Assembly (NCBI GenBank): GCA_951406725.2
Contig: OX597836.1
Coordinates: forward strand, 22,072,001-22,136,000
Direction of reading: 5' to 3'
Length of the DNA stretch: 64,000 nt
Origin: Octopus vulgaris
Lineage: Eukaryota
Shown here: positions 2,307 to 62,626 of the stretch, piece after piece
Layout of the letters: each line of letters opens with the position of its first letter
Position numbering within the stretch: the first letter of the stretch is position 1
Made by a program: the position numbers and the translations under genes
Notes under the pieces: model-generated
Told to the model about the DNA's origin: nothing
Seen by the model: only the letters and a program-made list of their open reading frames with translations
Databases searched by the model: none

Positions 2307-2358
2307 CAATTTCCAACAGCTCATTGGTTAAGACCAAAGCTAAATGTGCATTTCCTTG
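2307..2358 (-). CDS. P4HA: P4HA short internal exon (TPR continuation)
   Basis: 52 nt; tttgtttctttgtag| and |gtatgt, phase 0 to 1; QGNAHLALVLTNELLEI matches the QGxxxxALxLTxxLLEL segment that follows DYLSYA in P4HA proteins. Confidence 0.9.
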
Positions 2359-8491: not shown

Positions 8492-8597
8492 AACAAGATA
8501 CTTTCCTTCGTAACCTTGCTATCAAGTAAGTGGCTGTTCAAAATTTACTATAAATTAAAAAGTTAAAGAGAACATACATACACACACACACACACAT

Positions 8598-9528
8598 GGT
8601 GGGCTTCTTTCAGTTTCTCTCATCAAATCCATTTGCAAGGCTTTGCCCAAGGTGCTGCGCAGTGGGAGTGAACCTGTAGCCTCATTTTCGGGAAGCAAGC
8701 TTCATAACTACACAGCCATGTCTGCACTCAACAACATAATGGCAGATGAAATACCTATTTCTTTACTACCTACAAGGAGCTAGACACAGAGAGGACAAAC
8801 AAGGACAGACAAACGGATTAACTCGATTATATTGACCCCAGTGCGTAACTGGTACTTAATTTATCGACCCCGAAAGGATGAAAGGCAAAGTCGACCTCGG
8901 CGGAATTTGAACTCAGAATGTAACGGCAGACGAAATACCGCTAAGCATTTCGCCCAGCGTGCTAACATTTCTGCCAGCTCACCACTATGATGTGGTGGGC
9001 TTCTTTCAGTTTCTCTCTACAAATCCATTTGCAAGGCTTTGCCCAAGGTGCTGCGCAGTGGGAGTGAACCTTTACCCTCATTTTCGGGAAGCAAGCTTCA
9101 TAACTACACAGCCATGTCTGCACTCAACAACATAATGGCAGACGAAATACCTATTTCTTTACTACCTACAAGGAGCTAGACACAGAGAGGACAAACAAGG
9201 ACAGACAAACGGATTAACTCGATTATATTGACCCCAGTGCGTAACTGGTACTTAATTTATCGACACCGAAAGGATGAAAGGCAAAGTCGACCTCGGCGGA
9301 ATTTGAACTCAGAACGTAACGGCAGACGAAATACCGCTAAGCATTTCGCCCAGCGTGCTAACATTTCTGCCAGCTCACCACTATGATGTGGTGGGCTTCT
9401 TTCAGTTTCTCTCTACAAATCCATTTGCAAGGCATTGGCCCAAGGTGCTGCGCAGTGGGAGTGAACCTGTAGCCTCATTTTCGGGAAGCAAGCTTCATAA
9501 CTACACAGCCATGTCTGCACTCAACAAC
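8598..9528. repeat. Tandem duplication, 396-bp unit, about 2.3 copies
   Basis: ggtgggcttctttcagtttctct recurs at 8598, 8994 and 9390; each unit is an S1 fragment plus an S3 SINE; copies nearly identical. Confidence 0.92.
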
Positions 9529-16488: not shown

Positions 16489-16649
16489 CATTGACATGGC
16501 ATAGGATAAATAATCGAGAATGAGTGCTCGATCGGCTGTTTTATTCAATTCTCTCGCATCCTGATCCAGAGCTTCCTGCATCCACATAATAGTATGGTAG
16601 AAGTCACGTTGGGTATAGGCATAGCGTCCTAGCTCAAAGCATTCTTCGG
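16489..16649 (-). CDS. P4HA: P4HA peptide-substrate-binding (TPR) exon, variant B (putative mutually exclusive exon)
   Basis: 161 nt; ctgttttag| acceptor, |gtaaga donor, phase 1 to 0; (A)EECFELGRYAYTQRDFYHTIMWMQEALDQDARELNKTADRALILDYLSYAMSM. Confidence 0.95.
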
Positions 16650-16931
16650 CTAAAACAGTTAAAGAATTTCAATTGGTGTCACTAAACAACAGCAAAATGT
16701 ATGTTTTCACCATGATGCAGGATTTGCAACATGGTAAATACAAAACAGTTAAAGAATAAAAGACATTTGGCAGAGTTAGATTCTTATTGTGAGGACATGC
16801 AGAAGAGCAAAAGTCCATGCTTGTGTAACAAAGTTTGCCAAAGAGACTCCTAGACCTGAGTGAGTAAGGGTTAGGGATGAAGAAGGGAGACAGTTTCAAG
16901 GGTAGAGGAAAATGTTAGTCAGCAGACTCTG

Positions 16932-17007
16932 TTTATGACCCAGCTCAGAGCATTGTGCACTTAAAACAGTTAAAGATATTAAGTGGCTTCACTAAACTAC
17001 AATAAAA
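16932..17007 (-). pseudogene. Decayed partial duplicate of the 3' splice site and 5' part of exon B
   Basis: ctttaactgttttaa-gtgcacaatgctctgagctggg aligns to exon B ctttaactgttttag-ccgaagaatgctttgagctagg at 311-bp offset (AQCSELG vs EECFELG); upstream intronic sequence is also similar. Confidence 0.7.
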
Positions 17008-19562
17008 GGACAAAAATTCATGCTCGTTTGACTCTTTAGCACTTAAACTAGCCATAATTGGCCGAAATGTTCTGTTTTATGTTCAAGCTGACCAAATTTG
17101 GCCCCTCACACAAACCTTACAATGTCATTCTAAAAATAAACAATCACAAAGCTATAAGATAATGCATGATTAATTCTAAACACTGTGAATAAATAAGCAT
17201 TACATTTGACAGGATCTGAATACTAAAGGGTTAATGCAGTTGGCCAAAATGACTCCTGAAATTGAGTGAGAAAGAAGCAAAACTGAGGGAGGTAAGAAGT
17301 GTTAGTTGGTGGGTTCAATTTAGCTGTTATTATCATGATAAAGGGTTCAATCTAAGAACAAGAGATAAATATATATGTATATATGAGCAAGCACTAAGGT
17401 ATGAATTAGTTTGCATACAAGTTCCATGCACCATTACCATATGACTAATGATGTCACATGACATCAGCAAAAATTATAAACAAGCCAATCGAGGGACTTC
17501 TATCTTGTGATTCAACAAACTAGAAATATCCGAGAAATCTCCTCTCTTAGGTCAGACGTCCTACTGTACTAAAATTATAGGAATAAAAATTTTATAAAAC
17601 TCAAAGAACACAATGGATAATGTAGTCCTAGATACACTATGTCTGAAAAAAAAAACGGGATGTGATGGTTATAGTTGGAAGGTCTTTGATACTAGACATG
17701 CTTGAAAATACGGCTGATCGTCTATTTGATCAAGCTGATTTCAGTTAACAACAGCAATAATACCTATGACAACAATGTGAGAGACCTCTACATGGTTGTT
17801 TTAAAAAAAGCTAGAAATAGCAAAATCTGCTTCAATTCTTGCACAACTGCCTTTAGAAAGAAAGGTCACATATGTATATATATGGTAGGCATATATATGC
17901 ATAAATCTATGAATAGATGCCCTTCTATATTTTTATGTATTTTCTATCTGTATAGAGGTTAATAGTGTGGCAAATTATTATCTTAATACTTATTAATTAA
18001 CACTGATTACAAATCAGCTATTATTAACCCACAAGTATTTATTAACTCACTAATAAGTTCTTGGTAACAACATTTATATGCAGTATTTCCAGGGATAGTT
18101 GAAGAGGGTACTCAGTTGACAATGAAACTCCAACACTGGTTCAGATGATCTCTCATTTTCTGTCCCCGAAGATTTTGTAAATAAAGTGTGTTTACACATT
18201 ACTATGCACACACACATACATGCACACACACATACATGCACACACACATACATGCACACACACATGCACACACAATGCTGATTTTAGGGCACCAGTTCCA
18301 AGCCATCATTGGATCTGTAAAAATTTGTAAAACTTTCATGTCTAGGAAATGCAACTATTATGCATGAGAATATGTACATAAAACAAAACATACAAATTTG
18401 CACATGTACTCTACTCCAAATATTGCACATATACATACATACAGATTGCATGTATACAAGCATACAATCTATAGATATACTTCATAGTATGGCTTAATAC
18501 ATGTGTATATAGGTAATGTAGAATACAGTGTTTTCCCCCTGCAACAGCTTTTAACCCATGGCCTATGACCCAACCATAATTTAACCATGTGTAAATCTAA
18601 GAAAAAAAATCTTTATTACAGTTTTTAATATAGGAAGCAGGGGAGAAGGTTGGTTATGAGTGGTAGTGGGTTTTGCAAGGTTATTAAAGTTAAGGGGTTA
18701 GTTGGAGATATGCTTTGATATGGAGATGGACATACAGATGGACATGTGCAGAGGATTTCAAGGGTTTTTTTTTTCTTGTTATAGATTACGGAAAGAACAA
18801 AAAAATGAAATGCACACTGTTGAAGTTGTCATTCCTAGCATCACCAGTGTTATCATCAGACATCAGCAGCACTGTTATTATAATCATCATTGTTGTTATT
18901 ATCGTCGCCACCTTCATCACCACCACCAACCTTATCACCATCACACAAGCACCACCATCATCATCATCATCATTTCCACCACAAACAACTCCTACAACCT
19001 ACCACCACCACCACCATCATCATTGTCATTTAAGATCACCACTGACACCCCACAACACCACTACCAACACCAATTTCTTTACTACCCACAAGGGGCTAAA
19101 CACAGAGAGGACAAACAAGGACAGACAAACGGATTAAGTCGATTATATCGACCCCAGTGCGTAACTGGTACTTAATTTATCGACCCCGAAAGGATGAAAG
19201 GCAAAGTCGACCTCGCCGGAATTTGAACTCGGAACGTAACGACAGACAAAATACGGCTACGCATTTCGCCCGACGTGCTAACGTTTCTGCCAGCTCACCG
19301 CCTACCAACACCACCATCACCACCATCATCGACGTTGCTATAATCAGCCATTAACATCACAATTGTTATTTATCTAACATCACTATCACCACCATTGTTG
19401 ACCTTAACATTTAAAAGAAAAAAATGTCTGGTCCTACAATCTGTGTACACATATTTTCAATAGGCCATTTACTGCAGTGTTTGTTCTCAGATAATATTTC
19501 TTGGATACTTGCTGCATTAAAAACGCAATAAATATCAGAGGAAGATGAAAATTCATCATCTA

Positions 19563-20025
19563 CTCTGGTGGTTATCAACCTGGGTCCATATAAAATTTCC
19601 TTGTTAAAATTTATCCGCAATAAATTACTTATATTTCTGAAATACACGAAATATTTTAACAATTTTTTTTAATACAATTTCTAACAATATTTAATTATGA
19701 AAATATAATAGGACATTTTTAACCCTTTAGTGTTCACATTCTGCCAAAGTTAAAGCTTTTTTAGCCACATTATTTTGAACTAATCATGCATTATCTTGTA
19801 GCTATGAGATTTTGATGTGGTAGCTGTTAATTTTTAAAACAATATTGTAGGGTTGGTGTGAGAGACCAGATCTAACCAGTTTGAACATAAAACAGGCAGA
19901 ATACTTTTAACCGGATATGGACGGTTTAAATGCTAAAGGGTTAAACATCAAATGGCTATGAGGGTGCATCTGAATAAAGTAGGGACCAAAGGAGCCCATA
20001 GGCAAAAAATGGTTGAGAAACACTG
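19563..20025. mobile_element. hAT-like non-autonomous element with nested piggyBac MITE; related copy about 58754-59072
   Basis: Termini ctggtggttatcaacc / ggttgagaaacactg resemble CAGTGGTTCTCAACC hAT TIRs. Confidence 0.55.
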
Positions 20026-20585
20026 ATCGAAGCAATGCCCGGTGTGAGTGTCAGGAGTATTTTAGCCCTTTTGAGCCTTTTCAGTGGTACAGACTTGTAA
20101 CCAACCACATACCCAGATGAGTGAATTCATTATCTAATATATTTAATATGTTTCAAGCACAGCCAAATCCATTACAGATGTTATGTCAGGACAAATGCTG
20201 CAGTAAATGGCCCATCAACTGTGTATATACATTAAGTATGATACATAGATGGCTATTTTAATTAAATACTGTTTAAATTGCATACACCAGATCCTCATGA
20301 TCATCATCATTGTTTTAATATTTACATTTTCGATGTTTGCATGGAGTGGGCAGAATTTGTTGAGGCTGAATTGCTACAGCTGGATGCCCTTGCTGTTTCC
20401 AAATGAGGTAATAGTTCCTCATGACCAGACATGGTTTCGTGGAAGATTGGAAACAAAAAGAAAACATTCTGCATCACAGTGACATTCATTTACAACCATC
20501 ATGTGATGTTAAGGCTAAAACACAGTAACACATGCACACACACCCACACACATGTATATATATATGGTGTGCTTCTTTCAGTTTC

Positions 20586-20901
20586 GTGGAAGTGCAATGG
20601 CCCAGTGGTTAGGGCAGTGGACTCGTGGTCGGAGGATCGCGGTTTCGATTCCCAGACTGGGCATTGTATGTGTTTATTGAGCAAAAAACACCTAAAAGCT
20701 CTATGAGGCTCCAGCAGGAGTTGGTGGCAAGCCCTGTTGTACTCTTTCGCCACAACTTTCTCTCACTCTCTCTTCCTGTTTCTTGAGTAACGCTGCGATG
20801 GACTGGCATCCCATCCAGCTGGGGGGAACACATACGCCACAGAAACCAAGAAACCAGGCCCATGAGCCTGGCTAGGCTTGAAAAGGGCGACGTTTTTTTT
20901 A
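20586..20901 (+). mobile_element. SINE with S2-type head inserted into an S1 SINE; related copies about 24105-24410 and 3654-3945
   Basis: Head gtggaagtgcaatggcccagtggttagggc; TSD ctttcagtttc at 20575-20585 and 20903-20913; 3' tail differs from the 12930/15066 copies. Confidence 0.85.
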
Positions 20902-21385
20902 TCTTTCAGTTTCTGTTTAACCAAATCTACTCACAAGGCTTTGGTTGGCCTGGGGCTATAGTAGAAGACACTTGCCCAAAGTGTCACACTGAGGGACTAG
21001 ATCTAAAACCATGTGCTTGGGAAGCCAACTTCTTAACCACACAGTCACATCTACACACACACACACATGCATACACAGATTCGTGATTAACTCAAAAAGC
21101 CAACAAGGTACCATTCACCAAAACATCCAACCATGCTGTAAAACCATGATCGCCATTCCTCTAAGCAATCCCCCCTCTCTCTCACACACACACACACACA
21201 CATAAATCCACGACAATGTCAGACACCCAACAAGGTTTCATTCACGAACACCACATCCAGCCTTACCACAAAACCATGATCACCATTCCTCAAAGCAGTC
21301 CAACCACACACATACACGACTATCCCTGTTATGTCTACCACCATTACAACCACCCAATCTCAGACAAGCACACAGCATCACATAC

Positions 21386-21546
21386 CTTAAACGTGGCAAA
21401 AGCCAAATAGTCCAATAAGGCATCTTTATTGATTGTCTTAACCGTTTCCTTATCATAACGCAGCAACGCTTCGTCCATCCACAGTACAGTGTGGTAGAAG
21501 TCATCATCATGATAAGCGATTCTACCAAGTTCGTAGCAGTCTGCGG
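21386..21546 (-). CDS. P4HA: P4HA peptide-substrate-binding (TPR) exon, variant A (putative mutually exclusive exon)
   Basis: 161 nt; branch-like gctaac plus gcttttttccag| acceptor, |gtatgt donor, phase 1 to 0; hand translation (A)ADCYELGRIAYHDDDFYHTVLWMDEALLRYDKETVKTINKDALLDYLAFATFK with no stops; this frame is not shown in the ORF track. Confidence 0.93.
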
Positions 21547-24800: not shown

Positions 24801-26026
24801 ATGATGATGATGATGATTCTTTCAAATTTTGGCACATCATCATCATCATCATCATCGTTTAAAGTCCGTTCTCCATGCTAGCATGGGTTGGACGGTTCGA
24901 CCGGGGATCTGGGAAGCCAGAAGGCTGCACCAGGCTCCAGTCTTATCTGGCAATGTTTCTACAGCTGGATGCCCTTCCTAACGCCAACCACTCCGTGAGT
25001 GTAGTGGGTGCTTTTTATGTGCCACCTGCACAGGTGCCAGGCGAGGCTGGCAACGGCCACGGTCGGATTGGTGTATTTTACGTGCCACCGGCACGGAAAC
25101 CAGTCGAGGCGGCGCTGGCATCAGCCACGAGTCGGATAGTGCTTTTTACGTACCACCAGACCAGGGATCCTGGCTGGTTCAATTCGATTTCGATTTCGAC
25201 ATGGCTAGTAATTTTATGGGGAAGCTGGGCAAGTAGATTACATCGACTCCAGTGTTCAACAGGTACTCTTTATCGACCCCAACAGGACAAAAGACAAAGT
25301 TGATCCTCTGTAGAATTTGAACTCAGAATATCAAGACCCAGCAGAAGAAAGACTGTCAAGCATTTTGTCCAAAACACTAACGATTCTGGTCGCTCACTGT
25401 CTTAATTACTTCCAATTTTGGAACTCTCTCTCTCTCTGTTACTCTTTTACTTGTTTCAGTCATTTGACTGTGGCCATGCTGGAGCACTGCCTTTAATTGA
25501 GCAAATCAACCCCAGGACTTATTCTTTCGTAAGCGTAGTACTTATTCTATCGGTCTCTTTTGCCGAACCGCTAAGTTACGGGTATGTAAACACACCACCA
25601 TTGGTTGTCAAGCGATGTCGGGGAGACAGACACAGACACACAAACATACACACACACATATATACATATATACGAAGGGCTTCTTTCAGTTTCTGTCTAC
25701 CAAATCCACTCACAAGGCTTTGGTCGGCCTGGGGCTATAGTAGAAGACACTTGCCCAAGGTGCCACGCAGTGGGACTGAACCCGGAACCATGTGGTTCGT
25801 AAGCAAGCTAATTACCACACAGCCACTCCTATGCCTTTTTACGAGGTGGGGAAGATGATTGTTATATTAACCCCAGTATTTGGGCAGCTACTTTATTTTA
25901 TCAACTCTGAAAGGATGAAAGGCAAAGTTGACCTCAGTGGAATTTGAACTCAGAACGTAACAACAAATGAAATGCCACTGTGCATTTTGCCTTGCATGTT
26001 AACGATTCTGCCAGTTCACCACCTTC

Positions 26027-28441: not shown

Positions 28442-28603
28442 CTGTGAGTTCTTGGGTTTTCACACCACCAACTTCCCCACGTGCAATATCAGCAGTATCC
28501 AACTGGTAGGTGTCTTGCAGTCGCAAAAGAGCGGCCGCTGCCCCATTAAGATCTTCATAGTCAGGAAGATGTTGTCTCTTGATTTCTATCGTGGAAACTA
28601 ATT
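28442..28603 (-). CDS. P4HA: Prolyl 4-hydroxylase alpha subunit, internal exon
   Basis: 162-nt exon, ccctatag| and |gtatat, phase 1 to 1, in frame with the previous exon; (E)LVSTIEIKRQHLPDYEDLNGAAAALLRLQDTYQLDTADIARGEVGGVKTQELT contains the GAAxALLRLQDTY signature. Confidence 0.96.
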
Positions 28604-29157: not shown

Positions 29158-30466
29158 GTTATTACACCTGGAAAAGTACAGAACATGACTTCTACAATAG
29201 AATTTGCCTTATTTGTCACCTTTAAAAGAAACTATAAAGTACTTAAAATAAAATTCTACTGTACTTAAAATATTGGAGCTGAGAATAACATTTTTAAAAT
29301 TAAAATACATTATATTAGGTAAATCTGAGATAATCTATTTTATTTATTGTGAGAATGTAAAAAAAACAAGTCAATCTTTAAAAGCATGGTACAAAAATAA
29401 TCAAAAATAAATTTAAACAAAAATATTTTAAAAATCACGTCTTTTGAAATATACAATTAAAATAGTCATTTTATTTAGTTATATAGGTGCAGGAGTGGCT
29501 GTGTGGTAAATAGCTTGCTTACCAACCACATGGTTCCGGGTTCAGTCCCACTGCATGCATGGCACCTTGGGCAAGTGTCTTCTACTATATCCTCTGGCCA
29601 ACCAAAGCCTTATGAGTGGATTTGGTAGACGGAAACTGAAAGAAACCTGTCGTATATATGTATATATATGTGTGTGTGTGCGTGTGTATATATATTTGTC
29701 CCCCCAACATCACTTGACAACCGATGCTGGTATGTTTACGTCATCGTAACTTAGCAGTTCAACAAAAAGAGACCAACAGAATAAGTACCAGGCTTACAAA
29801 GAATAAGTCCTGGGGTCGATTTGTTCGACTAAAGGCGGCGCTCCAGCATGGTCGCAGTCAAATGACTGAAACAAGTAAAAGAGTAAAAGAGAGAGATATC
29901 AAATACAAACAATAAAGCATGAAGTTGCATATTATATTGCACAGCGTAAAATATATTAGTTAGCATTAAAACAATAGAATTAGCTTAATTCGTCTTTGGC
30001 TAATTCATTACTTTATCTAGCTCACCACTTTCAGTTTTCTCCTAGGGCTGACTAATTAGGCAAATTCTACTGTATTTTAACAAAATTAATTCTATTTTAT
30101 TTCATTTTTAAAATACTGCTTTTTCCCAAAAATAAGCCCATGGGTTTAAATACAGACTTAAATAATTTTGCTTAAATAATTTTTTCTGAAAATATTAAAA
30201 TTACTGGGGTTATACATGAAAAGAATTGCTGAATATAAGCCCGTAGGCTTAAAATCGGATGGGCTTATTTTTGGAAAAACCCAGTAATGCTTTTATAATT
30301 TTCGTTTTAACAAAATATAGTAAATTTCTAAAATGTTGTTCTCGGCTGCAATATTTTAAGTACATAGAATTTTAATTTTAAGTACTTTTTAGTTTCCTTT
30401 AGAGGTGACAAATTAGACAGATTCTACTGTAGAAATCTTGTTCTGTACTTTTCCAGGCGTAATAAC
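29158..30466. mobile_element. Non-autonomous DNA transposon with about 140-bp diverged inverted repeats, carrying a nested SINE and a nested MITE
   Basis: gttattacacctggaaaagtacagaaca..tttgtcacctttaaa vs tttagaggtgacaaa..tgttctgtacttttccaggcgtaataac; nested TA-flanked MITE 30114-30286 (aaaaataagccc/gggcttattttt). Confidence 0.75.
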
Positions 30467-32425: not shown

Positions 32426-33492
32426 GCAATGAACTGATGATATAAAGAGAACAATGGGAGCGCAACAGAGAAGGAAGATGAGATCAAAAACAGAATGGCT
32501 GAAATGCTGTGGCCAATGGATTGAAAGCGACATCTGACGGTCTGGCTGGTCAAGGTGATTGTCCATCAATATCTTAGATGAACTGAACTACTGATTCATT
32601 GAATTATAGGGCAAATAAGTAGCCGAGTATTCCAGAGACAAAGTACACTCAATGGATTATCCAGGCAAAAATCAGTTATTTTACATGGGGTGTAATAAAG
32701 CTGGACTCGTGAATTACATGTATCGTTCATCCATTGCACTCTTAACATGGTTTCTGTTGACCCAGCTTCACTCACAAGTGTTGGCCAGGGCTATGCTTGC
32801 CCAAGATGCCACAAGGCAGGATAGAACTTGGAGTATCCTGATTGCAAAGTAAATAGTTTAACCACTTGACCATGGTTTAAGCACACACGCACACATTCAC
32901 TAGAACACACACACATATACACACTTATAATGCATACACAGACATACACACACACTCTCTCTCTCTCTCATATATAATGGATATGTACACATATATATTC
33001 AATCATTACATATAATGTATATCGTTTATCTTTTACTTCTTTCAGTCATTAGACTGCGGCCATGCTAAGGCACCACCTTAAAGAATTTTTAGTCAAATGA
33101 ATCAATCCCACTAATTATTTTTTTAAAGCCTGTTACTTACTCTATTGGTCTCTTAAGGGATGTAAACACACCAACACTGGTTGTTAAATGGTGGCAGGAG
33201 ACAAACACAGACACAAACACACACACATATATGTAAATATATATGACAAGTTTCTTTCAATTTCCATCTATCATTCATAAGCCTTTAGCTGGCCTGAGGC
33301 TATAGAAACTGAAAGAAACTTGTCATATATATTTACGTTTGGTAAGTAGCTTGCTAACCAACCACATGGTTCCGGGTTCAGTCCCACTGCATGGCATCTT
33401 GGGCAAGTGTCTTCTGCTATAGCCCCAGGCCGACCAATGCCTTGTGAGTGGATTTGGTAGACGGAAACTGAAAGAAGCCTGTCATATATATG

Positions 33493-33529
<37 letters not shown>

Positions 33530-33916
33530 TTGTGTGTCTGTGTTTGTCCCCCTAGCATCGCTTGACAACCGATGCTGGTGTGTTTACGTCCCCGTCACTT
33601 AGCGGTTCGGCAAAAAGAGACCGATAGAATAAGTATTGGGCTTATAAAAGAATAAGTCCTGGGGTCGATTTGCTCGACTAAAGGCGGTGCTCCAGCATGG
33701 CCACAGTCAAATGACTGAAACAAGTAAAAGAGTAAAAGAGAGTATATATGTGTGTGTGTGTGCCATGTGGGTGGGAAGCAAACTTCGTACTACATGGCAC
33801 TCTATCACACAAACACATATGTACACATAATGTAATCACACAGACATTCAATGCTAACAAACACAGAATTGACACAATGCGTGCACACACACTGAGGTTC
33901 ATATGGTGTATAAAAC

Positions 33917-34612: not shown

Positions 34613-34764
34613 CATTTGTGATGTTGTCCTTTAAAAACTGGAATTCTTTGTCCCAGTCCACGGTGAATCGCTTGACTAGGAGAAATGCATTGACCGGATT
34701 TCCAACAAAGTGATCTGGATTTTCCAGAGCAAAAGTACTGTGCCTGTCATAATCCTCAGCAAGG
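34613..34764 (-). CDS. P4HA: Prolyl 4-hydroxylase alpha subunit, internal exon (N-terminal dimerisation domain)
   Basis: 152-nt exon, ttacag| acceptor and |gtaagt donor, phase 2 to 1; encodes LAEDYDRHSTFALENPDHFVGNPVNAFLLVKRFTVDWDKEFQFLKDNITN with the P4HA GNPVNAFLLVKR motif. Confidence 0.95.
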
Positions 34765-36198: not shown

Positions 36199-37183
36199 TA
36201 AATATATATAAGTATATACACAAATATATACATAGTGACTGGTAAATTCCACCATGGACTCAGAGTGTAAAGACAGATGAGTGGCTGTGTGGTAAGTAGC
36301 TTGCTTACCAACCACATGGTTCTGGGTTCAGTCCCATTGCGTGGCACCTTGGGTAAGTGTCTTTTACTATAGCCTCGGGGCGACCAAAGCCTTGTGAGTG
36401 GATTTGGTAGACAGAAACTGGAAGAAGCATGTTGTATATATATAAATATATATATATGTATGTATGTATATATTTGTGTGTCTGTGTTTGTCCCCCCAAC
36501 ATTGCTTGACAACTGATGCTGGTGTGTTTATGCCCCTGTCACTTAGTGGTTTGGCAAGCGAGACTGATAGAGTAAGTACTAGGCTTACAAAGAATAAGTC
36601 CTGGGATCAATTTGCTCGACTAAAGGCGGTGCTCCAGCATGGCTGCAGTCAAATGACTGAAGCAAATAAAAGAATAAAAGAATTCTGCCTGCAGTGCTAA
36701 TAATTCTGCCATTAAATTTATTAAATTCTTCATTGCTGTTCATAATAAACTGAGACAGTAGTTGGATACTTCAATGGACGTGTTACCACAAGTAGCTTGA
36801 AGAAAATAAAAAGCCAAATACATTTCTAACAATTATTTTTATAGAGATTATAAAATTTAAGTAAACATGTGTCAATAACATAAAATTTTTTAACAGCTTG
36901 TCATAAAAGAAAGCTAATAATCTATTCTTGCTGCTAAAATGGAAAATTCAAGATGACAAAGGGAAAGATTGGTTTTGTTATTCTTTTACTTGTTTCAGTC
37001 ATTTTATTGCAGCCATGCTGGAGCACCAAAAGGGTTTGAGTCAAAGAAATCAACCCCAGGACTTATTCTTTGTAAGCCTAGCACTTATTCTATCAGTCTC
37101 TTTTGCTAAGTTAAGGGGACATAAACACATCAGCATCGATTGCCTTGTGATGGCAGGGGGGGCAAACAGACACACACACATAA

Positions 37184-37238
<55 letters not shown>

Positions 37239-39789
37239 TACATATGTGTGTGTGTGTATATATATGTATATATACAATGGGCTTCTTTCAGTTTCTGTCT
37301 ACCAAATCCACTCACAAGACACTCGCCCAAGGTGCCACACACTGGGACTGAAACTGGAACCATGTGGTTGGGAAACAAGCTTCTTACCACACAACCATGC
37401 CTGTGTCTTCACATATTTTTTTTAACCTTGATTGGAAATAAGTAGGTTTCTCTTTAGCTTAACTACCACATTTAGGTTTGATATCATCATCATGTAACGT
37501 CCATTTTCCATGCTGGCATGGGTGGGATGGCTCGACAGGAACTGGCAAGACCAGGGGCTACACCAGTTTCATAGTCTGCTTTTGCTTGGCTTCTACAGCT
37601 GAATGCCCCTTCTTAATGCTAACCACTTCACAAAGTGAACTGGGTAGTTTTCACGTGACACCAGCATCAGTGATTTTTACATGGCACCAGCACCCATACC
37701 AATGCTTTTCTATGTAGCACCTTGGTGTATGCATGTATGTACATATAACTTATGTCTAGGTGTGCATTTGTCTTTGTATCTGCATTTGCCATTCTCTCAC
37801 ATACACACACACTGACAACCCACACTTTTTTTGTCTGTCAATCTTCCAAATAGCTACAGATGTTTCTTTGTAGTGACCTCATTTGCCATTCTCTCTATTG
37901 AAAGTTCTATGCCGGTGGAAGGACGGCAACATGTGCAGACTTTACCAGTTGAAAGCACACAGTAAGTTACAACTTTCATCTGTTGCCTATGCTTCAAAGC
38001 ATGGAAGTCCGCAGTGGGTCCGAACAATCGTCTGAGAGGTCAAGGACAGAAAGTCAGAAATGCCATTGACAAGGGACCATAAGTATAAGATGATGGTAAT
38101 ATTTGTTTGCAACCACCATATGATGGTGGTTGGTGCAGGAGTGGCTGTGTGGTAGGTAGCTTGCTAACCAACCACATGTTTCCGGGTTCAGTTCCACTGC
38201 ATGGCATCTTGGGCAAGTGTCTTCTGCTATAGCCCCGGGCCGACCAATGCCTTGTGAGTGGATTTGGTAGACGGAAACTGAAAGAAGCCTGTCGTATATA
38301 TGTATATATATATATGTATGTGTGTATTTGTTTGTGTGTGTCTGTGTTTGTCCCCTTAGCATTGCTTGACAACCGATGCTAGTGTGTTTACGTCCCCGTC
38401 ACTTAGCGGTTCGGCAAAAAGAGACCGACAGAATAAGTACTGGGCTTACAAAGAATAAGTCCCGGGGTCGATTTGCTCGACTAAAGGCAGTGCTCCAGCA
38501 TGGCCGCAGTCAAATGACTGAAACAAGTAAAAGAGTAAAAGAGATATGATGTCAAGACAATGAGACAGCAACACATAAGTGACCATGCAGTGGGATTGAT
38601 CCCAAACCATGTGGTTGGGAAGCAAACTTCTTAACCACACAGCCACTACCTAACATTTTTTATTGTTGTTGTTGAGCGAGGTCGTTGCCAGTGCCGCTGG
38701 ACTGACTTCTGTGCAGGTGGCACGTTAAAAACATCATTTCGAGCATGGCCGTTGCCAGTACCGCCACACTGGCCCTTGTGCCGGTGGCACGTAAAAGCAC
38801 TCACTACACTCTCAGAGTGGCTGGCGTTAGGAAGGGCATCCAGCTGTAAAAACTATGCCAGATCAGATTGGAGCCTGGCGCAGCCACCGCGTTCGCCAGT
38901 CCTCAGTCAAATTGTCCAACCCATGCTAGAATGGAAAGCAGACTGTTTCAAATTTTGGCAGCAGACAAGCAGTTTTAAGATGAGGAGGGGGCGAGTCAGT
39001 GCCATCAACTCCCGGACTTAGATGGCACTTTATTGTTATTGGCACTCGTAAAGATGAAACGCAAAGTTGGTGTCACCGAGACTTTTATGCAGAATACAAA
39101 ATATTGGAAGAAATTCCACCCTTATAATAATAATGATAATAATAATAATAATGATTTCAAATTTTGGCACAAGGCCAGCAGTTTTGGGGGAGGGGTTAAG
39201 TCAATATCATCAAACCCAGTACTCAACTGGTATCTATTTTATCAACCCTGAAATGATGAAAAGCAAAGTGACCTCGGTGGAATTTGAACTCAGAACATAA
39301 AGACAGATGAAATGCTGCAAAGTGTTTTGCCTAGTGCAGTAATAATTCCACCAGCTCACTGCCATAATAACAATAATAATAATAATGACAATAATATTAA
39401 TAATAATAAATACTGATTCCATCTTGTATGACATCACTTATTGTTTCAAAAGATTAATCAAAATGATAATAGAATTTGGTCAGCTTTTCAATAATATATA
39501 TGTATGTGGATATTTGTGTGTGTATACAGTACTTATGTATGTAAATAAATAAATAATTCATAGTGGTACTGATAATTATTTTACTTTATCATACAAGACA
39601 AATTAGTGAAAGTGTTCTGCAAACGAAAGAAACCAAAATGGGGAAAAAAAGAAAAAAAAAGTGAGAAATTAAAGGTGAGAGAATGAGAAAGAGAGAGAGG
39701 GTGAGAGGGAGAGAGTGAGACACTAAAAGACGAAGCCTAGTCAGATACAGATAATATAGGCACACTCACACACAAACATAAAGACAAAG

Positions 39790-41723: not shown

Positions 41724-42567
41724 AGAGGTATACAACGACAGGCTTCTTTCAGTTTCTGTCTACAAATCCATTCCCTAGGCTTTTACCCGCCCAGTACTAT
41801 TGTAGAAGACACTTGCCCAAGGTGGGCACACACTGGGATTAAACCCAAAACCATGTGGTTTAAAAGAGAACTTCTTAACTACACAGCCATGTGAAAGAGC
41901 TTATGTCCCCATAACGTAGTGGTTCAGCAAAAATGATCAGAGTAAGTACCAGGCTTTAAAAAAAAAAGTACTCTTCAAGGCAATGCCCCAGTATGGCCAC
42001 AGTCCAATGACTGAGACAAGTGAAAGATAAAAGACAAACAATTAAAAAATTTTGACAGCTGAGCAACCTCGTCAAAGATTTTTGCAATTAAATTCTCTTT
42101 ATACGTATGCATACATTTGTATATCTGTATACACACACACACACACATCTGTATGTGTGATAATAAATGTAGAATGAAAAGTAAGACCATAACCAAACAT
42201 GTGACTAATATTAAAAAGACTAAATGGCACCAGCTATAAATATCTCTCCTACAGCATGAAAACAAATGGATAACTTATGAGGTTGAAATCTGAAGATACA
42301 GTGCATGCATGAATACATATGTATAAGCATACACACACACACACACACATACTCTTTTACTCTTTTACTTGTTTCAGTCATTTGACTGTGGCTATGCTGG
42401 AGCACCGCCTTTAGTCGAGCAAATTGACTCCAGGACTAATTCTTTGTAAGCCTAGTACTTATTCTTTCGGTATCTTTTCCCCGAACCGCTAAGTTACGGG
42501 GACGTAAACACACCAGCATCAGTTGTCAAGCGATGTTGGGGGGACAAACACAGACACACAAACGTAG

Positions 42568-42618
<51 letters not shown>

Positions 42619-44770
42619 CATATATACGACGGGTTTCTTTCAGCTTCCGTCTACCAAATCCACTCACAAGGCTTTGGTCGGCCTGAGGCTATTGTAGAAG
42701 ACACTTGCCCAAGGTGCCACACAGTGGAACTGAACCCGGAACCATGTGGTTGGTAAGCAAGCTACTTACCACACAGCCACTCCTATATTCATATATATTA
42801 ACACATACATACACATGTATACATGAATACATATACACATGCATGTATATGTTTGTGTGTGTACGTGTGCATATGTGTGTATCGTGAATGTGTGCAGACA
42901 CACACACACAAAAATGTGTATAGATATAGATATAAATATGGTTGTGTGGTTAAGGAGCTTGCTATGCGACCACATGGTTTCAGGTTCAGTCCCACTGCGC
43001 AGCACATTGGGCAAGAATCTTCAATTCAATGCCAGGAAGACTAGGAAGAAGAAGGCCTTCCATTATGGAAACAATTTGGTGCAGTAAAATCCAAAAGTAA
43101 GGTGCAAAGGCAGAGCTGAAAAAAGCAGAGGTCCAAGAGGAGAGAAGCAGAAAAGACAACCCAGGGTTGAGAGAACAGTACAGAAAAATTACTGATGACC
43201 AATGCTCCATAGGAATCAAAGGGCTTAAGTTCACATTTGTGTGGTCACCTCATATTGGAATACAATTACAACATTGGAAAATTGTAGCCTACTTCATTTC
43301 AATGCACAAACATCATCATCATCATTATCATTTAACCTCCAGTTTCCATGCTGGCATGGGTTAGAACTGGCAAAAGCTGGGATCACACTAGCTTTCATAG
43401 TCTGTTTTAGCTTGGTTTCTATGGTCAGACATCCTCTCTAATGCCAACCACTTTACAGAGTGTACTGGGTGCTTTTTTACATGGCATCATCACTAGTGCT
43501 TTTAACATGGCACCACCAACAGTGCTTTTTATATAGCACTATCACTAATGCTTTTTACATGGCACCAACACTAATGCTTTTTACGTGGCACTTTGGTTTT
43601 AGAATATCACATGTACTCACAAATGCACAAATATACACAATTTATTCAGATTTTTAAAGTTTGGCATAATAATATAATCTTTGAAAACAATCCATTCAGT
43701 CTTTTAGAGAAAACAGGTCTCTTAAGAATTCCGCTTCTGTTTTTTTTTTTTTCCTTCTCTTCCATTCTCACCCTCCTTAAAGAAATTGGCTGCTGTGGTT
43801 GTGGTGGTGGGATAGGGAGAGAGTGATTGAATGGAACAATTTCACTTTCAGAGAATTTGACAATCAAAATGTCAAGGACATTTCCTGACATTGTTGACTT
43901 CTAGTCAATTCATCCTACCACACCACAACTAACAGCTTAAAATGGATTCAACTGTTTTTCGATGAAATTGATACCAAGATTTATTAGAAATTAAAGAAAA
44001 TTCAGAATATAAGAATACCAGACATAGATATACACGATACATACACATGTTCATTAAACATACATATGTGTGATAAGAAGTTTGCTTCCCAACCACATTG
44101 TTCCGGGTTCAGTCCCACTGTGTAGCACCTTGGGCAAGTGTCTTCTACTATTGCCTTGGGCCAACCAAAGCTTTGTGAGTGGATTTGGTAGATGGAAACT
44201 AGAAGTCCATCATGGGAAAATATGTATATGCATGTGTGTATATGTGTCTTTGTATCTGTGTTTGTCCCACTACTTGACAAGTTTTGGTGTGTTTACATCC
44301 CTGTAACTTAGCAGTTTATCGACAGAGATCAATAGAATAAGTAGCAGACTTTAAAAAAGATCATACTGGGGTCGATTCATTTGACTAAATATTCATCAAG
44401 GCAGTGCCCCAGCATGGTCACAATCTAATGACCGAAACTAGTAAAAGATGAAAGATATATTTTTTTATTAATATTTAGCATAAGCAACAGTGACTCAGGG
44501 GCCGAGAAGTTTATGTGTTACAAATCAATGTGTTGTAAATATATACACTGGTGATATTGGCATTTCCCTGGAGAGTTCTGGAACAAATGAAAACTTATAA
44601 TTTGTTCCAGAGCTATCTAGGGAAATACCATTATCACTGGTATATGAATTTTTAATTCCCTTGATTTGTGACTAGTTTGGTAAGTGGTAATCTAAATATA
44701 TGTCTTGAGTTCCAGTTTTCCTGTTGACATTATTAAATCTCTCTCTCTATATATATATATATATAAATGT

Positions 44771-61140: not shown

Positions 61141-62626
61141 TGCTACAGATGCAGCAGGTAAGAAAATATCTATCTTTTAAAGCGTTTGTACCAGGTTATG
61201 TGATGTGCCCATCTTAACGGGTACATTTTGTATTGTCAGTGTTTTTGTTTGATTGTTCCACAGAGGGAGGCACATTGCATGATGGCTTAACAAATAGTTT
61301 TTCATATCGAGATCTAGGGAATATGGGGATGGGAGAGAGGGGGTATGAGGCTTTGTTGCATTTCCTTTTACGTTGAACTAATTTAGAAATGAAAAGCATA
61401 GGTTGTGAGTAATGGCAACATGCTAAGGTATTTAAACTGGTGAACACTAAGTGCATATCACTGATTTAATTATAAGTGGTGGTCATGTCGTAGGAGTCAA
61501 TTGTTGCCAGTACACATTTAGATGTAGTCTTTCAATTGCCATATTGTAACCCAAGCTTCTAATAAATCTCTCTCTCTCTCTCCCTCTTTCTCTCTCTCTC
61601 TGTAGAAAATGGGAATGTGTTAGCATTATTGGGTTTGTAGGTCATCTATGAAATGTCTGTCTTAGTGAGGGCAAATTCTAGGTAAGAAAAATTCTTTTAG
61701 AATCACAATTTCCATTGTATGAGACACAGGAATACTAAGATTAAAAGCTTTCCAGTTCTTTGCTCTTTTCCTTCCCTTTGAGATAGTGATGGCTATTGGA
61801 CAAATCATTTAGGAATAACGGAATAAATAGTAAGGACTCTTGCATGGATTTAATCTGTGGTACTCTCAATATTATAATGATTACTGTTGATTTATTAGCA
61901 TTCATTATTAATTACAATTCTCTGTCCTGTAATCTGATCCTCTAGAATGCTTAATGTTGGTTCATTTAGGAGTGGCTGTGTGGTAAGTAGCTCGCTTACC
62001 AAACACATGGTTCCGGGTTCAGTCCCACTGCGTGGCACCTTGGGCAGGTGTCTTCTACTATAGCCTCAGGCTGACCAAAGCCTTGTGAGTGAATTTGGTA
62101 GATGGAAACTGAAAGAAGCCCGTCATATATATATATGTGTGTGTATATGTTTGTTTGCCACCACCCATTGCTTCACAACCGATGCTGGTGTGTTTACATC
62201 CCCGTAACTTAGCAGTTCAGCAAAAGAGACCGATAGAATAAGTACTAGGCTTACAAAGAATAAGTCCTGAGGTCGATTTGCTCGACTAAATGCGGTGCTT
62301 CAGCATGGCCACAGTCAAATGACTGAAACGAGTAAAAGAGTATCTGTATGTCTGTTTACAGAAGGCACATGGCTGTCTGGTAGGGGTTTTCGACCTACAG
62401 TTGTGATGTTCTGAGATTGATACCCAGCAGTGCACTGTGTCCTTCAGCAAGATACTTTATTTCATGTTACTCCAAGTCCACTCAGCAGGCAAAAGAGAGT
62501 GGTACATGTATTTTAAACGTCCAGCTTAATCACATTCAGTGTGTCAGGCTGAATTTCCCTAAGAACCACTTTGTGTCTGTGGAGTGCTCAGCCACTTGCA
62601 CGTTAATGTCATGAGCAGGCTGTTCT

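Follow-up and report, generated by a model that had tools for sequence, protein, structure and literature searches.

The collagen prolyl 4-hydroxylase alpha gene of Octopus vulgaris raises the question of whether one gene can supply two versions of the domain that holds the substrate chain, and what such an exchange would do to that hold. The window considered here is a stretch of 64,000 nucleotides (GenBank assembly GCA_951406725.2, contig OX597836.1, positions 22,072,001 to 22,136,000 of the forward strand), and coordinates given without another label are positions within it. The gene lies on the minus strand and carries two neighbouring exons of the same length and phase, exon A (21386..21546) and exon B (16489..16649), each of 161 nt and phase 1 to 0, separated by a GT-AG intron of 4736 nt (16650..21385, minus strand). 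They are flanked by a constitutive upstream exon (28442..28603, minus strand, 162 nt, phase 1 to 1; residues 110-164, PF08336) and a constitutive downstream exon (2307..2358, minus strand, 52 nt, phase 0 to 1; residues 218-235), the latter single copy in octopus. In spliced readings of the window, both A and B are preceded by AG, followed by GT and free of stops in frame 2. The two agree at 25 of 53 whole codons plus a junction-split Ala, which makes 26/54 amino acids, and at 96/161 nucleotides (match E = 4e-14). Joining the flanks through either exon alone leaves the frame open, while including both ends the product in FATFK PKNALS*, with the stop within exon B, and skipping both ends it in ELTARKCTFSFGLNQ*, with the stop within the 52-nt exon. 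An initial annotation of this stretch, made from its letters alone, had proposed this pair together with its stop-generating double and empty combinations, and its coordinates and frame claims all hold.

No third copy of the exon is found within the window, since the next best match reaches only E = 0.95 or worse, and across the 2.8-Gb genome only exons A and B match exon A strongly or pass the PF23558 cut-off, with one further sub-cut-off Pfam match on contig C10. Each constitutive exon maps once across the 110 kb that span the whole gene (contig C23 of the assembly, G000), as the initial annotation had supposed for the flanks, and the five listed isoforms mapped on those 110 kb occupy 13 coding exon positions. 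The pair therefore has what marks mutually exclusive exons derived by tandem duplication, namely homologous neighbours with equal splice positions and phase, in one gene and between shared single-copy flanks. In addition, each exon stands alone in spliced products, as seen in the NCBI isoforms and in full open reading frames (ORFs) on 2-4 kb contigs of relatives. Judged from the sequence, A and B are alternative exons that arose by tandem duplication within a single octopus collagen prolyl 4-hydroxylase alpha gene.

Both products are already on record at NCBI, which settles whether existing annotation lists the two forms. The exon B products are XP_029649805.1 and CAI9739422.1 (P0002) and the exon A products XP_029649806.1 and CAI9739423.1 (P0005), the XP entries being isoforms X1 and X2 of Octopus sinensis and the CAI entries those of Octopus vulgaris; they are letter for letter the B and A isoforms of the window, and P0002 and P0005 differ only within residues 165-217. 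NCBI isoform models rest on RNA-seq, while the entries themselves are automatic and come without interpretation, conservation analysis or pocket mapping. Full-length ORFs on cephalopod-like contigs of 2-4 kb carry type A in P0015 and type B in P0010-P0013, and these contigs must be spliced because the gene is far longer. Outside the swapped block, the two members of an oyster-like pair (P0074/P0077) are likewise identical. A protein search with exon A alone against the longer proteins returned 0 matches among 15 candidates; the A isoform sits inside the cluster led by the B isoform. The exon pair is apparently undescribed even though both isoforms are annotated: no account of an alternative exon pair in the domain that binds the peptide substrate (PSB domain) was found in the literature searched, subscription papers and bioRxiv supplements excluded, and genome-wide exon catalogues may list the pair unremarked.

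Which part of the enzyme is exchanged can be stated with some precision. P0002 contains, in order, PF08336, PF23558 and PF13640, that is, the N-terminal dimerisation domain, the PSB domain with its tetratricopeptide repeats (TPR) and the 2-oxoglutarate-Fe(II) catalytic domain, which places it in the P4HA family; its PDB matches are human P4HA1 (1e-64) and the catalytic domain of P4HA2 (2e-94). The swapped exon covers positions 2-54 of the 91 in PF23558 and encodes the first three of the five PSB helices. When the B isoform is modelled with AlphaFold2 (55 sequences, mean pLDDT 81.7), residues 164-217 form exactly three helices (164-176, 180-196 and 204-217) at pLDDT 92-96, and the next exon forms the fourth; by alignment, these correspond to H7-H9 and H10 of the human domain. 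The proposal that the swapped segment is the substrate-binding domain thus stands as to its location within that domain, but it overstates the extent, as only three of the five helices are exchanged.

What the swap changes in the binding groove was read from the pocket residues named in passages of PMC12433258: Tyr158, Asp192, Tyr193, Tyr196 and Arg223 for the P8 pocket, Tyr196, Tyr199, Asn227, Tyr230 and Phe231 for P5, and Tyr230 and Tyr233 for P1. Five of these residues are encoded by the swapped exon. Across 20 pairs of exons, positions 158 and 192 are invariant and position 193 is aromatic in 39 of the 40 exons, while at position 196 Phe stands in 18/20 A exons and Tyr in 17/20 B exons. 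Position 199, the P5 residue that is Tyr199 in human, is the best-separating of the 54 columns, being aromatic in 20/20 A exons and in 10/10 single-copy rows and in only 3/20 B exons. In octopus, exon A places Phe213 and Phe216, and exon B Tyr213 and Ser216, where human Tyr196 and Tyr199 stand. Human P4HA1 and P4HA2 have Tyr and Phe, respectively, at 199; because the position is aromatic in A exons, in single-copy rows and in both human enzymes, exon A appears to be the ancestral-like copy and exon B the derived one, with a groove that would have no counterpart in those two enzymes. The constitutive exons give both octopus isoforms Arg223, Asn227, Tyr230, Phe231 and an Arg at 233, so that neither has the P1 tyrosine marking human PSB-I.

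These residues suggest how the two isoforms would differ. The P8 pocket would be kept by both, through the equivalents of Tyr158, Asp192 and Tyr193 and the constitutive Arg223, while exon B would remodel the P5 pocket (Tyr at 196, a small residue at 199) and in this way bind (Pro-Pro-Gly)n or polyproline differently. Given that the exons are genuinely used as alternatives, we consider it fairly likely that the B exon alters or weakens proline binding. As specificity for the X residue is placed in the catalytic site in passages of 10.1101/2023.06.28.546674, the PSB swap would more likely affect affinity for long chains than the choice of triplet. Exon B also encodes an N-K-T sequon (residue 199 of the octopus protein) in the H8-H9 loop, which is present in the Argonauta and cuttlefish-like B exons and absent from the two cephalopod A exons seen.

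The pair is common to snails, clams, a brachiopod, ribbon worms and octopus, and is not octopus-specific. The comparison of isoform pairs covered lophotrochozoan and arthropod sets, with deuterostomes entering through the human catalogue only. A swap of this block occurs in 16/20 lophotrochozoan isoform sets compared, including 10/10 lophotrochozoan clusters looked up (Patella, Haliotis, Sinanodonta, Littorina, Mercenaria, Pecten, Crassostrea virginica, Lingula, Tubulanus and Lineus); the sets without it are Biomphalaria P0036/P0049, Mytilus trossulus, Mytilus edulis and Babylonia, where the two members are different genes. Among arthropod isoform sets the PSB swap is found in 0/8, an absence in annotation and not in genomes. 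Among 129 long proteins scanned, eight hold two copies of the exon, two of them being beetle gene fusions and six having one upstream exon with A first (Biomphalaria, Aplysia, Candidula, Tegillarca, Pinctada and Lingula). We read these six tandem models, all from NCBI, as gene models that fused both exons, an error to which gene predictors are often prone at this site (6/129).

A profile search of 1.84 billion representatives returned 600 matches, mostly single-exon ORFs; among the 150 matches listed, four have two matching stretches, of which P0183 is the Lingula both-exon model and two are fused genes. In metagenome contigs, 80 of 119 matching loci were retained, and 57 of these hold the exon together with both of its neighbours. 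Two copies between single flanks occur in two of these 57, L041 (161 + 161 nt) and L077 (167 + 161 nt), both with AG/GT ends and both frameshifted upon double inclusion. The remaining 55 comprise 53 without room for a second copy, owing to short introns or to being spliced, and two that had room and one copy.

How old is the duplication? The order of the exons is known, from DNA or from tandem models, in nine pairs, and in 9/9 of them the first exon resembles other first exons more closely than the second exon does. Of the 512 possible label flips, the two best-ranked are the true labelling and its mirror (7/7 and the best two of 128 before L041 and L077 were added). In a tree of 46 rows and 54 columns, all 18 first or A rows fall on one side and 17 of the 18 second or B rows form one group. 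Octopus A and B as a clade of their own are rejected (p-AU 0.031), and a clade of all B exons is not rejected (p-AU 0.165), which does not prove it. On these alignments, molluscs, brachiopods and nemerteans quite likely inherited the pair from one origin that predates their split. That split dates to more than 500 million years ago.

Both copies appear to have been maintained since. Octopus B is identical to its Argonauta equivalent at 50/54 residues and to that of a cuttlefish-like record at 42/54, and octopus A to that of P0015 at 41/54, alongside flanking exons with 37-50 of 51-64 residues identical; comparisons across types, A against B, give 26-28/54. The exons are thus more alike between species (41-50/54) than across types, as expected of mutually exclusive exons derived by tandem duplication. 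Between related metagenomic loci, dN/dS is ~0.04-0.06 for both exon types, which indicates that both types are under purifying selection; more distant pairs are saturated. Octopus A against B gives pS 0.69, near saturation, and pN 0.34. The suggestion that this is an old, selected duplication is thereby borne out by the swap across phyla, the sorting of exons by position, the high identity within types and the low dN/dS between related loci. The NCBI isoforms, the sharing across three phyla and a further cluster of alternative exons in the catalytic domain, described below, had been absent from the initial annotation.

On balance, we favour, at somewhat better than even probability, the explanation that A and B are true alternatives, likely of a single early lophotrochozoan origin, in which B exchanges a proline-pocket aromatic for a small residue and likely changes or weakens the hold on proline-rich chains. 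Several observations weigh against it. The B residues at 199 are diverse (A, M, L, G, S, T), which fits a loss of constraint equally well as a new pocket shape, and Tyr199 is kept in the 3/20 B exons noted above, which are of clam type (Sinanodonta, Mercenaria and L077). In 11/20 pairs, likeness and not gene order decided which exon was called A and which B; near-duplicates, namely the oyster-like pair and two more pairs from Haliotis, were excluded, and related species do not count as independent. Tree support is weak (84/90 for the A side and 80/69 for the B group, with 3 of 43 branches starred), Tubulanus B is placed among the A rows, and the second exons of L077 and L041 (L077_2, 18.5; L041_2, 1.6) score on the A side in absolute terms. 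Finally, no RNA structure enforcing the choice was found in the 120-130 nt flanks. A competing account, which we regard as unlikely though deserving of weight, accepts the exons as real alternatives and leaves peptide preference unchanged, with the swap tuning folding, stability, glycosylation or the contacts of the PSB domain with linker, catalytic domain or partners. It would accommodate the columns 156, 159, 161, 171, 177, 186 and 200, which also separate A from B and of which several lie away from the named pockets, as well as the sequon gained by cephalopod B, and it agrees with the mapping of human short-peptide specificity to the catalytic site, ~30 Å from the PSB groove, in passages of 10.1101/2023.06.28.546674. 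However, the column that discriminates best among the 54 belongs to a named residue of the P5 pocket, and a second pocket residue, 196, changes together with it; outside cephalopods, both exon types mostly carry Asn where the sequon lies.

The single origin could also be an illusion, if the exon was duplicated independently in several lineages, such as those of molluscs, brachiopods and nemerteans, with the likeness of A to A and B to B arising by convergence in a gene prone to tandem exon duplication. Exons do duplicate readily in P4HA, as seen in the four swap sites of Lingula and in a duplicated next exon in Owenia, L036 and L045; moreover, the tree is weak, with Tubulanus B misplaced and the clam B exons A-like, and the Owenia model, the sole annelid model seen, has one copy only. 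Nevertheless, an A-then-B order in all nine order-known loci, Lingula and L041 included, the B features held in common at 196, 199 and 200, and the rejection of the octopus pair as a clade make independent origins quite improbable. That one exon is dead, that the two belong to separate tandem genes or that the assembly is wrong is more improbable by far, since every other exon is single copy over the 110 kb, the synonymous sites of A and B are near saturation, and both types are found in full-length spliced records and have been kept in three phyla.

Returning to the favoured explanation, in which A and B are alternatives, each mRNA would use one exon, and the products of double inclusion or double skipping would be removed by nonsense-mediated decay, because their stops fall far upstream of the last junction. 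As to how the choice is imposed, the intron between A and B is far too long for steric exclusion, the limit for steric blocking being ~50 nt. With the U12 consensus used as the criterion for splice-site incompatibility, the donors (GTAT/GTAA) are all of the ordinary type, and no mixture of U2 and U12 signals is seen. Duplexes between the flanks are no better than shuffles over 120-130 nt (z -0.69 for A, -0.49 for B); local folds give z -1.14 (A) and -2.03 (B), values that are given no weight here. The frame lock is the one mechanism that the sequence shows, and an active splicing regulator probably exists, although none was found. A stem noticed by eye around exon A fared no better than shuffles and was set aside, and the long inverted repeats flanking the exons (2465 pairs) were not used, as they look like copies of dispersed repeats.

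Alternative exons are known from this family. Human P4HA1 exons 9/10 and P4HA2 exons 12a/12b are catalogued as homologous alternative exons in passages of PMC8373072, where the P4HA1 event is dated to Bilateria, and what they alter, according to passages of PMC9676403, are two loops of the catalytic domain, the hairpin loop and the betaII-betaIII loop. The octopus pair thus uses the same tandem-duplicated alternative-exon device in the same family, but it swaps three helices of the PSB TPR domain, 54 residues in all and locked by frame, and lies outside the catalytic loops; that the site differs from the vertebrate events had been correctly recognised. Two PSB versions on the same kind of enzyme are likewise found in vertebrate C-P4H-I and C-P4H-II, which come from separate genes. 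There, passages of PMC12433258 ascribe the polyproline difference to the P1 pocket, where Tyr233 is exchanged for Gln while P5 and P8 are conserved, and PSB differences track the binding of polyproline and (PPG)n. In octopus the change is instead at P5 (199 aromatic against small), a change absent from the two human enzymes, and position 233 is Arg in both isoforms and comes from a constitutive exon. The idea that splicing here does what vertebrates do with paralogues is therefore a loose and imprecise one, as the Tyr233 determinant lies outside the swapped exon. For the Drosophila enzyme, passages of PMC12340787 contain neither 'exon' nor 'splic'.

The octopus gene also has three alternative catalytic-loop exons, outside the window at G000:C23:22059306-22059244, 22052741-22052679 and 22050554-22050489 (L031, L032), of 63, 63 and 66 nt and phase 0-0. 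This second cluster encodes residues 432-453 (betaII-betaIII loop), at the human P4HA2 12a/12b site, and one listed octopus isoform skips all three. The swap at the P4HA2 site may be older than Vertebrata or convergent, because PMC8373072 dates the human event only to Vertebrata. A second hairpin-loop exon of the P4HA1 type was not found in the octopus gene when mapping across the 110 kb. If the PSB choice combines freely with the three catalytic-loop exons, up to six alpha subunits would come from one gene. We put forward, only tentatively, that combinatorial assembly of this enzyme from a single gene has been practised by molluscs, brachiopods and nemerteans from the early Cambrian or even earlier: a splice switch would take a proline pocket out of the groove and re-target the enzyme to different collagens or to other proteins rich in proline, and it would act alongside alternative catalytic loops, Lingula having as many as four swap sites.

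None of this is a new kind of mechanism; the pair is much older and wider than had been recognised, and the pocket change that comes with it is specific and can be tested. Two natural enzymes that are the same but for three PSB helices, that persist in three phyla and that differ at a named residue of a proline pocket amount to a clean experiment. To a gene with two known catalytic-loop events, the pair brings a third site of exon duplication and, in Lingula, there is a fourth, so that all swaps known affect either a part in contact with the substrate or the neighbour of such a part.

Several further features surround these exons. In the same gene, coding exon 2 (34613..34764, minus strand) encodes residues 59-110 of the N-terminal dimerisation domain and is constitutive and single copy. 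Swaps similar to those of the catalytic loop occur in Mercenaria, Crassostrea, Lingula, Biomphalaria and Mytilus, with three copies in L041. The exon for H10 (octopus 2307-2358) is duplicated elsewhere, in Lingula (P0175/P0168), Owenia (P0095), L036 (651-701 and 1673-1723) and L045 (1400-2163), reaching three copies in the last. The four swap sites of Lingula are residues 166-217, 221-234, 358-380 and 433-450. In Babylonia areolata, P0046 and P0050 come from two distinct P4HA genes that lie on different contigs, and an A-type exon is listed for one and a B-type exon for the other; they may be splice forms resolved into paralogues, or merely the isoforms that lead their clusters. Divergent P4HA-like pieces of 29-46% identity are clustered at G000:C10:37.78-37.88 Mb (L005-L008, L023-L027, L029), with another at C10:902863-903036 (L022), so that octopus also has P4HA paralogues. 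Within the long intron after exon B, positions 8597-9528 hold a 396-bp unit in tandem duplication (2.4 copies, 97% matches). A dispersed repeat of ~410 bp, which by its size we take to be SINE-like, occurs in many copies that are 80-93% alike and lie in both orientations, at 23-424, 1877-2286, 25425-25837, 29486-29902, 33337-33762, 36266-36681, 38132-38555, 42332-42788 and 61954-62342.

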